Of a stretch of 28,898 bases of DNA, positions 25,580 to 28,898 are shown one piece after another (position 1 is the first letter of the stretch; every line of letters begins with the position of its first letter). The notes beneath the pieces were generated by a model. The model ran no database searches and had not been told where the DNA came from. It saw nothing but the letters and a program-made list of their open reading frames with translations. The position numbers were made by a program, and so were the translations under genes. Source of the DNA: Candidatus Hermodarchaeum yapensis (GTDB lineage Archaea > Asgardarchaeota > Hermodarchaeia > Hermodarchaeales > Hermodarchaeaceae); NCBI GenBank assembly GCA_016840405.1, contig JAEOSK010000033.1, positions 1 to 28,898 on the forward strand, given 5' to 3'.

Positions 25580-26227
25580 CTATTCATCGACCGCCATTTC
25601 TCGGAGCCGGCGCTTGAAGTCATTCAACCATCGGACGGTCTGGAATTCTAATTGTTTGGCCTCCTCTGGAGTGAGAGTATCGTTGGGATCTCGTTGTTGA
25701 AGTTGATTGCGCCAATCTTTCATTGCCACAAGGATCCAATAATCGGGAGGGAAGTTTGGATACTTAGTCAAGAGAATGATGGCATCATCAAGAAGAGGTA
25801 CAATAAGGCTCATCCGAGCCACATCACCGAGTTTGGCGATATCGATTAATGTGATAAGATCGGAGACAATGTCGGCTGTTTTAGCAGCCATTCTGGCGGA
25901 AGTCTGAGCTACTAATTCAACCTTTTGTTCACCTTCGGGAGCACGCTCCACGATTTGGAGCTTTTTAACAGCAGTAGGAAACCGTTCAGCAATTTTTTCT
26001 TCGTCGACAAACGTTTCCCAGCTTTCACCTTCAGCTTCAAGTAACTGTCGCGCTTTGACCGTGTCGCTGACAAGAGACTTTAGCTGACGCTTATACAAGG
26101 CCGGTTGAATATCTCCATCCTCAAATTTTTCTGCAATGCTGTCGAGTGTGGCAATCGTTCCAAAAACTTCAGCTTCTAGTTCAACGACCTTTGCTTTTTT
26201 TGGTCGTTTTCGCTCGCGTACTGCCAT
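25580..26227 (-). CDS. vps28: ESCRT-I Vps28
   Basis: N-terminal 'AEVFGTIATLDSIAEKFEDGDI...Y' and C-terminal bundle 'ITLIDIAKLG...PLL.D...W...L...D.LT.EEAKQL.F'. GAGGAG RBS. Confidence 0.9.
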   Translation of the reverse strand: MAVRERKRPKKAKVVELEAEVFGTIATLDSIAEKFEDGDIQPALYKRQLKSLVSDTVKARQLLEAEGESWETFVDEEKIAERFPTAVKKLQIVERAPEGEQKVELVAQTSARMAAKTADIVSDLITLIDIAKLGDVARMSLIVPLLDDAIILLTKYPNFPPDYWILVAMKDWRNQLQQRDPNDTLTPEEAKQLEFQTVRWLNDFKRRLREMAVDE

Positions 26228-26247: not shown

Positions 26248-27015
26248 CTATTTGTATTTCTCGAGAGCCTTGTCAATTTGATAGAGCCGTCGTTTATACC
26301 GTTTGTATAACTTGGTGTACTCGGTTGAATTAATCTCAGCAGAGTCAAATTTCTGCTCAAGATTCTGTAATAAATCTTCAATTGCCAGTTTTTCGCTTTC
26401 TAGCTCTAACCGTTCCCGTTCCTTTGCATCCGTTGGCATGATTAGGGCATCAAGCTCTTCTTCGTCCGTTACTTCACCGGCGGTGATAGAGCCAGTGTCA
26501 ATCTGAGCAGCCATTCGAGCAATACGTTCATCGCGATCCTGAACTTTCTTTGACAATCTCGCGACTTCACGTTCCAACTGTTGATATCGCTGTTGGAGAA
26601 CTTCCTCCTCCTGAGGCATCTTCACCTTTGGCGCCTCGCGTGTCTTATCAGCCACAGGAGGTTCTCGGGCAAAAAGCCCCTTGATACTATTTACCACTTG
26701 GTAGACATGATAGTGAGGTTGCCACTGGGTGACGATGCGTAGATGAATAGCTCCTGACTCTGAATCAACTCGCGGATGCTTTGTAGGCATCAACATTCGA
26801 GCCACAGGTGGTTGAGCTGGAAAGTTTGGAGGCACAATAATCTCGACAAGGAACTCATCTTTACTTCGTGGTCCACCTTTGATTTTTCCTCTCCATCGGC
26901 GAAGATTCTGACCAACTGGAGTAAAGGTAGGTGCTCGCCGGTACATCAATTGTGCTTCACGAGCAATCGATAATTCTTGTTGACTTCGCATAGCCTGTGC
27001 CATAGTATACACCAT
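26248..27015 (-). CDS. vps23: ESCRT-I Vps23/TSG101-like protein (UEV + coiled coil + steadiness box)
   Basis: E2-like fold 'P.NFP.QPP...HPRVD..SGAIHL...W.P' with no catalytic Cys, a central coiled coil, and a C-terminal 'AIEDLL..L......I....Y.K'. Confidence 0.88.
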   Translation of the reverse strand: MVYTMAQAMRSQQELSIAREAQLMYRRAPTFTPVGQNLRRWRGKIKGGPRSKDEFLVEIIVPPNFPAQPPVARMLMPTKHPRVDSESGAIHLRIVTQWQPHYHVYQVVNSIKGLFAREPPVADKTREAPKVKMPQEEEVLQQRYQQLEREVARLSKKVQDRDERIARMAAQIDTGSITAGEVTDEEELDALIMPTDAKERERLELESEKLAIEDLLQNLEQKFDSAEINSTEYTKLYKRYKRRLYQIDKALEKYK

Positions 27016-27087: not shown

Positions 27088-27627
27088 TCATGTTGAAGTA
27101 GCCTTAGTTTTTCGCTTGGGGGCAACTTTTTCTTTCGTTGGAGTGCTTTCAACCGCCTGTTTAACCGTCACAAGGATATTGCTTTGGAGTTCTCGAAGAA
27201 ATTCTTCAAATCGTGTTTCAAACAAAGTAATCATTTCTTCTATCCGTTGAACGGCCTGTGTAAGAGTTGGTAAAAGCTCTTTTTGCAATTCAGCAAGAGA
27301 GGCATCCGATGTCTTGGCTGGTTTTTGTTTAGCTATTTTGTCCATCGATTTTTCTAAGGCTTCAAATTGGGAGGATAGAACACCCAGCCGTTCAACTGAA
27401 GATTCTGAAGCAATAGTGTCGTCAGCAACTAGCTTTTGTAGCGTTTTTACCTCACGTAGAAGTGCGCGAATATTAGCCTCCATTTTCAGATTCATCCGTC
27501 CCAGATCTGCATCTAATAAATTCAAGCCTTTCACAATTCGTTTAAGGGACTCAACGGTTGGAACTAGCCCTTTTGGTGTTTTAATGGCTTCAATTTCAAT
27601 AGCGTATTTAGGTGGTTCAGAGGACAC
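27088..27627 (-). CDS. Coiled-coil hypothetical protein upstream of vps23
   Basis: 179 aa with a heptad pattern and a basic low-complexity tail; non-ATG start. Confidence 0.7.
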   Translation of the reverse strand: MSSEPPKYAIEIEAIKTPKGLVPTVESLKRIVKGLNLLDADLGRMNLKMEANIRALLREVKTLQKLVADDTIASESSVERLGVLSSQFEALEKSMDKIAKQKPAKTSDASLAELQKELLPTLTQAVQRIEEMITLFETRFEEFLRELQSNILVTVKQAVESTPTKEKVAPKRKTKATST

Positions 27628-27828: not shown

Positions 27829-28077
27829 ATGACACAACCACCAGAGCGGTTTGTAATTCCATCGGTGACCGAAATCGGTCAATGGGATTGGACCGCGACT
27901 GCTAAATGTGTCGTCTGCGGCCTTCTTGTCCGCGAAGGACAACAATTAGTCTATTGTCCTAAGTGTGGCAACCCTGCCCATTATGCACATCTTGCAGAAT
28001 GGGTGAAAGTCAAAGGAACCTGCCCTATCTGTCGGAACCGTATAAACCTACGAAGGTTGAAACCGGTTAGAAAATAA
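27829..28077 (+). CDS. Stand-alone RING-finger protein (putative E3 ligase)
   Basis: CVVC-x11-CPKC-x3-HxxH-x3-W-x6-CPICR. Confidence 0.85.
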   Translation: MTQPPERFVIPSVTEIGQWDWTATAKCVVCGLLVREGQQLVYCPKCGNPAHYAHLAEWVKVKGTCPICRNRINLRRLKPVRK

Positions 28078-28092
28078 TCGGATGGTGAAAAT

Positions 28093-28329
28093 ATGCGAAT
28101 TGAAGTCGTTCCAGCGATTGGTGGTAGTGATCCAATTGCACTCGAAGTGGAGCCAAACACGACTATTGGAGAAGTCCGAAATCGCGTTGCACAAATGCGC
28201 CGTATACCGCCCAACATTGTCATTCTAGCATACCGCGGTGCACAACTGACCGATGAACAGACCGTCAAGAGTGTTGGCATCACCCCCCATGACAAGCTGT
28301 ACTTAATTACCCGCACCGAGGGCGGCTAG
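28093..28329 (+). CDS. Ubiquitin-like modifier
   Basis: 78-aa beta-grasp pattern (LEVEP.TTI..V, L.YRG.QL.D..T....GI) ending in TRTEGG*. GGTGA RBS. Confidence 0.93.
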   Translation: MRIEVVPAIGGSDPIALEVEPNTTIGEVRNRVAQMRRIPPNIVILAYRGAQLTDEQTVKSVGITPHDKLYLITRTEGG

Positions 28330-28370
28330 AGTCTGTTAACCAACTCGGTTTCAATCTCAGTTGCCCCTCG

Positions 28371-28383
28371 ATTTCTTCTTTTT
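28371..28383 (+). terminator. Putative oligo-T terminator of the RING-ubiquitin transcript
   Basis: ATTTCTTCTTTTT about 40 nt after the ubiquitin stop. Confidence 0.4.
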
Positions 28384-28406
28384 CAGCTACACGTAAGAAG
28401 TTTGGT

Positions 28407-28568
28407 GAAGACTGCGTTAGCCATAAGTGAACTACCCCGACCTGACGGTCGGTGTTTCCTGCTTCATACCATCGACTTATGCCGACTGGTCCACAGGCTC
28501 TACTCGCCGTTCCGGCGATGTTGCCCGGTCACCGGAGACCTTGGTTCTCAGTCCCCAACCGGGACCTC
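28407..28568 (-). ncRNA. IS200/IS605 right-end / TnpB omega-RNA (reRNA)-like scaffold plus putative 3' guide
   Basis: The minus strand reads ...CGCCGGAACGGCG...GCCTGTGGA-hairpin-ATGAAGCAGGAA-ACACCGACC(GTCA)GGTCGGGGT-AGTTCAC|TTATGGCTAACGCAGTCTTC. This is the recalled motif order of tnpB-element right ends. Confidence 0.75.
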
Positions 28569-28589
28569 AAAAGAGGAGTCTTATCGTGC

Positions 28590-28597
28590 TATTTAAA
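28590..28597 (-). promoter_or_regulatory. TATA box (TTTAAATA) for the minus-strand RNA
   Basis: Consensus archaeal TATA box about 25 nt upstream of the first stem of the RNA. Confidence 0.6.
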
Positions 28598-28750
28598 CGC
28601 CCCTAGGTTAATCCACATCTTCAAGAATCTGTGTATCTCGAGAAATTAAATAGAATAAGATGTGATGGTTTCATACGAAAAGGTATTTACCACAAATGAA
28701 GCTTGTAACTGTACCGGGGACCGGCTTATCTAGGTAGAGGCGCTGTCCAC

Positions 28751-28898
28751 ATGCTATCAGAAGAAGACTACTGGGCAAGATTAGCTCTTGAAGCAAAAAA
28801 CATGGAAACCGAGGAACCTTCCTTCCAACCTGTCCAAGGCGATTTACGACGCTGGCAGGGATTCATTTTGGGGACGGGTATCTACGACAAGGGTGTCT
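28751..28898 (+). CDS. Ubiquitin-conjugating enzyme E2 (UBC fold), 3'-truncated by the window edge; absent from the ORF track
   Basis: MLSEEDYWARLALEAKNMETEEPSFQPVQGDLRRWQGFILGTGIYDKGV matches the E2 N-terminus (RL..E...dl..W...I.G...Y..G.F). The catalytic Cys lies outside the window. Confidence 0.82.
   Translation, partial: MLSEEDYWARLALEAKNMETEEPSFQPVQGDLRRWQGFILGTGIYDKGV

Follow-up and report, generated by a model that had tools for sequence, protein, structure and literature searches.

A 223-nt element with a putative trans-acting omega-RNA, very probably derived from an IS200/IS605 insertion sequence, beside the ubiquitin gene of Candidatus Hermodarchaeum yapensis

The window, by which we mean the whole stretch of 28,898 nt analysed here, comes from Candidatus Hermodarchaeum yapensis and contains an Asgard-type ESCRT/ubiquitin gene cluster. 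Vps28 (25580-26227) and an E2/UEV protein with a Vps23 core (26248-27015) are encoded on the minus strand, and a RING finger protein (27829-28077) and a ubiquitin with a GG C-terminal end (28093-28329) on the plus strand; a 179-aa open reading frame at 27088-27627 had no Pfam match. A truncated E2-like gene starts at 28751. The contig's last 144 nt (28755-28898) and the first 144 nt of C40, another contig of the same genome (G000:C40:1-144), are identical, indicating that the two contigs abut and that the E2-like gene runs on into C40. Positions 28335-28426, which lie after the ubiquitin stop codon and before the insertion site described below, hold conserved non-coding blocks, TTATGGCAAACGCAG and CGAGGGGCGACTGAGATCGAAACCG (minus-strand reading), which are kept in 11 genomes of the same genus, and the ubiquitin gene is followed by an oligo-T run on the plus strand. 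Blocks and oligo-T run may together represent a 3' UTR or a terminator element. The mini-transposon that is the subject of this report is inserted right beside these blocks.

The original prediction placed a stand-alone, promoter-driven guide RNA of the TnpB omega-RNA type on the minus strand of the ubiquitin-E2 interval. Read on that strand, all the motifs it listed are present: a TATA-like TTTAAATA (28597-28590), an outer stem CCCGGT...ACCGGG with an inner GGGGAC/GTCTCC stem (28563-28524), the hairpin TCGCCG-GAA-CGGCGA (28518-28504), GCCTGTGGA (28498-28490), ATGAAGCAGGAA (28467-28456) and the hairpin CCGACC-GTCA-GGTCGG (28452-28437). They lie within one mini-transposon unit of 223 nt (28649-28427, minus strand) that has TCTAT directly at its 5' side. 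This target or transposon-adjacent motif (28650..28654; family consensus TTTAT) adjoins the left end (28598..28649), which contains a CGAGA box, a subterminal hairpin in degenerate form (28633-28614) and GGATTAACC, for which the family consensus is GGGGATGAATC. A predicted archaeal promoter (28590..28603), consisting of a BRE-like GGGGCG followed by the TATA box, is separated by a 21-nt spacer (28569..28589) from a transcription start that we infer near 28568 from spacing alone. The putative omega-RNA scaffold (28427..28568) is 142 nt long and ends in GTAGTTCAC; it comprises the domains P1 (28563-28524), P2 (28518-28504), P3 (28497-28458) and P4 (28455-28434) and the tail AGTTCAC (28433-28427), which forms the right-end boundary. 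The flank in guide position beyond it (28403..28426, TTATGGCTAACGCAGTCTTC...) is ordinary host intergenic DNA, since the same sequence is found in the empty sites of relatives. No real open reading frame is present in the 223 nt, the opposite strand having chance frames of 59-65 aa only, and the element has no tnpB in cis, in agreement with the original reading.

The flagged stretch is not a product of chance, because it folds better than all shuffles (149 nt at -61 kcal/mol, better than 200 of 200 shuffled sequences; z = -2.7) and recurs 13 times in the genome. These 13 copies, found by similarity in the 2.7-Mb, 86%-complete genome, share 77-85% identity and each ends in GTTCAC; a covariance model added a further two, which are more divergent and have the same layout (C60:13685-13823 and C73:58858-58989), bringing the number of copies of this architecture to 15. 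Another 18 copies came from seven genomes of the same genus, with ten of them in a single genome, G010. The covariance model R1 (alignment A1), built from 30 copies, scores 130-160 bits on the 13 copies and 158.8 bits (E = 5e-39) on the scaffold in the window. When matches in same-genus genomes are counted with R1, which takes in tnpB 3' ends besides short copies, G010 has 12, nine other genomes have one to four, and four have none. Both the number of copies and their positions vary between species of the genus.

The order of parts is common to the family: T(T/C)TAT, CTAAA.CC.CGAGAAGA, a hairpin, GGGGATGAATC and GTGGAG-TTTAAATA in the 5' part, then a variable spacer of ~21 nt and a 3' part running from GAGGTCC... 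to ...GGTAGTTCAC. Outside the element, TTAT is the sole conserved flank sequence among the 30 copies (majority identity 0.77; flank positions further away reach 0.34). No obvious left end had been seen originally; conservation among the copies in fact reaches 28649, ~80 nt further upstream, and takes in a hairpin at the left end. The subterminal palindromes are alike at both ends of the family, ...CCCGTCC-GTCA-GGGCGGGG-ATGAATC on the left and ...CCGTCC-TTCA-GGTCGGGG-TAGTTCAC on the right, and there are no inverted terminal repeats. RNAalifold gave no consensus for the left-end alignment, in which the hairpins are out of register, and single-sequence DNA folds were used instead. As single-stranded DNA, the left-end hairpin of the window copy is weak, at -2.7 kcal/mol compared with -5.6 to -6.7 in two other copies.

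Both ends of the short copies have homologues in eight full-length tnpB elements of the same genome. On the right, the last ~95 nt of the scaffold are homologous to the 3' ends of the eight tnpB genes, which R1, with its 30 source copies, matches at 77-91 bits, and this bears out the predicted omega-RNA-type right end. The tnpB stop codon is the TAG within GTAGTTCAC, and the short copies retain ...KQEAPSFRAG-stop in the tnpB frame; these ~95 nt are the remnant of a tnpB 3' end. Sequence identity between the scaffold and the omega-RNAs of this genome's tnpB copies is no more than 67-76%, and the tnpB genes that come nearest are fragments. On the left, the terminal region and the TATA box are homologous to the left end and promoter of the eight elements, where the same left end leads into TTCAAATA and, after about 22 nt, the ATG of tnpB (ATG-CTC-AGA-ACC-TTC-CGG-TAT-CGC, MLRTFRYRLYPN), an arrangement that corresponds to a leaderless tnpB promoter. 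We recognised this homology by reading the aligned upstream regions of the tnpB genes; when the leftmost ~150 nt of the short copies were compared by BLAST with the full-length loci, only chance matches of 9-13 nt appeared.

These comparisons change the meaning of two features that had been emphasised originally. The 'dedicated promoter' does exist in the sense that the element has its own conserved TATA box, but the occurrence of the same left end and TTCAAATA upstream of eight full-length tnpB genes identifies it as the parent insertion sequence's promoter for tnpB, situated within the left end. The box is TTTAAATA in most short copies versus TTCAAATA in all eight full-length elements, and the change from TTCAAATA to TTTAAATA may have been a promoter-up change in a guide-only lineage. 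Similarly, to call P1 an 'extra 5' domain' was misleading, as the full-length tnpB elements carry a hairpin there too, though a shorter one; the larger P1 of the short copies reads as an elaboration rather than an addition. P1 and the first tnpB codons share ...AGAACC... and ATCGCC, strings that are too short for statistics, and P1 could possibly derive from these codons.

Candidate proteins for such an RNA are encoded elsewhere in the genome, which has 28 matches above the cut-off of PF07282 (the Cas12f1-like TNB domain of TnpB), representing several TnpB lineages that are distinct by sequence. The TnpB of contig C59 (P0002, C59:43431-44636) is an intact protein of 401 aa with HTH_OrfB, OrfB_IS605 and TNB domains, and its motifs GVDVG, VESLN and DRD keep the catalytic D-E-D. 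The TnpB of contig C67 (P0001) matches ISDra2 TnpB (PDB 8H1J, 8EXA) at about 7e-68, with D-E-D aligned. Full-length tnpB genes of the cognate family are mostly damaged, with fragments of 238-302 aa (C14:139092-142333, C40:33715-34973, C40:46807-48076, C36:14335-15556 and C67:32595-33826), and that of C59 alone looks intact. At the C36 locus an in-frame TGA follows the start, at the C67 locus ATA replaces ATG, and the C14 locus consists of two tnpB copies in tandem. A different TnpB-like gene, with a 482-aa open frame, lies ~1 kb from a short copy in convergent orientation (C36:9048-9230, C36:10290-10432). The expectation that a TnpB is encoded elsewhere therefore holds, in that genes with an intact D-E-D are present; the suggestion of a nuclease-dead, TldR-like protein does not, as the C59 and C67 proteins keep these residues.

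A profile search found no Y1 TnpA (PF01797) in this 86%-complete assembly; within the genus one genome of 14 has the domain, and eight genomes from other genera of the phylum have it too. One genome, G029, has an intact tnpA followed by a broken tnpB and by a right end, matched by R1, whose last bases are GGGUAGUUCAC, an arrangement indicating that we are dealing with a genuine IS605 family. In three genomes from other families of the phylum (G027, G031 and G037) R1 has 10-29 matches each, at 36-70 bits, so that this right-end/omega-RNA family appears to be abundant well outside the genus. Two of the three, G027 and G031, carry Y1 tnpA genes.

The ubiquitin-E2 interval is empty in all 11 same-genus genomes that we compared, with both sides of the element aligning. 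The empty interval measures about 27 nt between CCTTTTCG and TTATGGCAAACGCAG, and the occupied window has a 26-nt flank ending in TCTAT, the 223-nt element and then TTATGGCTAACGCAG. By this comparison the window copy is a species-specific insertion. A second case gives the insertion point to the nucleotide: the copy at C73:34233, occupied as ...GAATTCAAGTTTAT/CATATGC...GTAGTTCAC/AACCCCAAACACC (slashes mark the joints), corresponds in G002 to the empty site ...GAATTCACGTTTAT/AACCTCAAACACC, and the site is also empty in G005 and G010. The empty joint, GTTTAT/AACC, is exact in these three genomes and there is no duplication, which points to insertion 3' of TTTAT without duplication, the signature of IS200/IS605. 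The copy at C14:111552-111772 is orthologous, with the same flanks, to one in another species (L054, G005:C26:9262-10006), and at least some copies are therefore older than that speciation.

We conclude that the segment 28649-28427 is, very probably, a palindrome-associated transposable element (PATE), a MITE-like deletion derivative of a tnpB-only IS200/IS605 insertion sequence. According to this explanation, the tnpB frame of the parent has been lost and the left end, with its hairpin and leaderless tnpB promoter, is fused directly to the scaffold and right end. The resulting element inserted 3' of T(T/C)TAT, without target duplication, between the ubiquitin and E2 genes of this species only. 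Its TATA box would initiate transcription near 28568, and the product would consist of the ~142-nt scaffold and a guide copied from the flank. A TnpB supplied by a full-length copy elsewhere would bind the scaffold RNA in trans and, after excision of the element, the complex would cut the restored joint of TTTAT and flank, so that recombination could reinstate the element. We assume here that the scaffold is recognised by the intact C59 TnpB. Whether the element gives rise to an active trans-acting omega-RNA is a narrower matter, on which the sequences incline us slightly towards a positive answer. The explanation as a whole, a PATE with an omega-RNA that is retained selfishly, we hold with considerable confidence, the element being kept for its own sake and not as a host function.

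One alternative is that the element is an inert DNA relic, its hairpins being single-stranded DNA signals for TnpA only, with no functional RNA made or used. The hairpins of the left and right ends are indeed similar, like TnpA substrates, and the G005 copy of the orthologous pair is substituted at five family-conserved positions. However, TnpA-type transposition requires subterminal hairpins only, and P1, P2 and P3 covary as well. The covariation check proposed for the scaffold stems came out positive: RNAalifold finds four domains, P1-P4, with 36 consensus pairs, and 13 of these show compensatory changes. In the alignment 95.2% of cells are paired, compared with 23-45% when partners are slid, and the covariation score is 0.263, compared with 0.193 after shuffling and at most 0.093 after sliding; none of 500 shuffles attains the observed pairing or covariation values. 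Many one-sided changes give U-G pairs, which assigns the fold to the minus strand. Where short and full-length copies differ in the P2 stem, every change is compensated (CAUCGCCGGAACGGCGAG versus CACCGAGGGAACCUCGGG). The GUUC of the tail and the GAAC of both the P2 loop and the P1 loop are invariant across copies.

The distribution of conservation also speaks against an inert relic. Majority identity is 0.97 in the 9-nt right-end tail, 0.91 in the RNA core (P2-P3), 0.86 in the BRE/TATA region, 0.79 in P1, 0.77 in P4, 0.68 in the left end, 0.49 in the spacer and 0.32-0.34 in the flanks, with the drop to 0.32 occurring directly past the CAC of the right end. The central core is thus conserved above the left end, and a TATA-like box is kept in 26 of 29 aligned copies, 18 of which have the consensus form TTTAAATA. 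Promoter and core are therefore constrained beyond the needs of TnpA, which is an argument for the RNA being important to the lineage, and we regard an inert relic as unlikely.

The same conservation could be taken as a sign of the domesticated RNA-guided system that was proposed originally, in which a stand-alone guide-RNA gene kept by the host would direct a TnpB, or a TldR-like protein without nuclease activity, to some host target and so, for instance, regulate the ubiquitin/E2 cluster. Across the family, promoter and RNA core stand out as the most strongly conserved parts, the window copy combines a top-scoring scaffold with a decayed left-end hairpin, and TnpA was not found in the genome. 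The empty site in 11 of 11 same-genus genomes, however, largely refutes this reading. The RNA had been described as retained, and a left-end hairpin and empty sites in relatives had been named beforehand as evidence to the contrary; both were found, and together they identify a non-autonomous IS605 derivative and not a domesticated system. Moreover, the promoter comes from the parent insertion sequence, D-E-D is intact in the cognate TnpBs, and copy number and positions differ by species, as expected of mobile DNA. The guides point in the same direction: in all 14 copies tested, the 24 nt after GTTCAC match their own locus only, with no second target flanked by a TTTAT-type TAM in the genome. 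In the C14/C26 pair, the single orthologous pair compared, the scaffold (91.5% identical) is no better conserved than the flanks (85-92%), and left end plus promoter are 84.5% identical. Nothing here indicates domestication by the host, and we consider it highly improbable. A tempting false lead is thereby removed, as the ubiquitin/ESCRT cluster here gives no evidence of an RNA-guided system that has been domesticated.

The chance that the scaffold is a housekeeping structured RNA (SRP RNA, RNase P RNA, a snoRNA-like RNA or an intron-containing tRNA) resembling a transposon end is negligible: it is GC-rich with several stems and a TATA box nearby, and its GCCUGU and GGUGA motifs are reminiscent of the SRP Alu domain, but a search of the whole window with Rfam 15 gave nothing at gathering score, one of 28150-28800 at E <= 10 returned a single chance-level match to an unrelated sRNA, a tRNA/tmRNA scan found none, and an RNA with 15 copies per genome, variable flanks and a site absent in relatives is not of this kind, multiple copies and empty sites being the grounds on which we rejected an SRP-like RNA.

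Returning to the PATE with an omega-RNA, one might go further and regard the short elements as a satellite lineage reduced to guide RNAs. With an optimised promoter (the consensus TATA box) and a larger 5' hairpin, they would outcompete the parent tnpB elements for TnpB in trans, and would in effect be hyperparasites of an RNA-guided transposon in an Asgard-type archaeon. In a rarer version of this idea the host would co-opt single copies resembling that in the window, with an intact RNA and a decayed left end. We offer this as a speculation and think it doubtful.

What the genome provides is a clean, natural and minimal cassette, an archaeal promoter plus a 142-nt omega-RNA, in ~15 copies with different guides, together with at least one intact ISDra2-like TnpB. 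This combination is a possible test case for trans-acting omega-RNAs and for the physical separation of guide-RNA genes from the nuclease gene. A separation of this sort has been discussed as a stage in the origin of CRISPR-Cas12.

Three known systems can be set beside the element. TldRs are nuclease-dead relatives of TnpB that have been exapted as RNA-guided repressors and work with a guide RNA. As in those systems, the window scaffold is of the TnpB type and would operate apart from a functional transposase. In contrast to them, the TnpBs encoded here have retained the catalytic residues, the guide has no match beyond its own flank, the locus is not fixed in relatives and the RNA is encoded apart from the protein.

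The likeness to ISDra2 of Deinococcus radiodurans, known from cryo-EM (PMC10097598), begins with the close TnpB homologue (E = 7e-68) and extends to the RNA. The window scaffold, like the ISDra2 omega-RNA, has multiple stems and stops at the right-end boundary with the guide after it, and its last hairpin (P4) has a tetraloop at -20..-17. CAGG at -35..-32 pairs upstream, as in stem 2 of ISDra2 (PMC10097598), and UUC at -5..-3 of the tail could pair with an upstream invariant GAA(C), for which the P2 and P1 loops offer candidates, as in the ISDra2 pseudoknot (PMC10097598). The scaffold of the window is longer (142 nt versus 116 nt), the motif is TTTAT rather than TTGAT, and the RNA would be made from its own promoter, whereas that of ISDra2 is cut from the tnpB mRNA.

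The closest counterparts are the PATEs themselves. They were first defined in the archaeon Haloquadratum walsbyi as core-deleted IS605-type elements, some of which keep part of the tnpB C-terminal region (PMC3119063). Meers et al. reported that PATEs often encode omega-RNAs requiring the TnpB of other elements in trans, and omega-RNA-encoding PATEs were noted in Geobacillus stearothermophilus (PMC10055086). The kind of element found here has thus been described already, and the concept is published. Like PATEs, the element in the window has no protein gene and no inverted terminal repeats but has subterminal palindromes at both ends; its family inserts beside a short motif without duplication, is present in many polymorphic copies, and shares its ends with full-length tnpB elements of the same genome, the right end being the omega-RNA scaffold. 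It differs in that the leaderless tnpB promoter is joined to the 5' edge of the scaffold, producing a compact 'promoter plus guide-RNA' cassette, in the consensus TATA box TTTAAATA of most short copies, in a P1 that is enlarged relative to the parents, and in its host, which carries an Asgard-type ESCRT/ubiquitin gene cluster.
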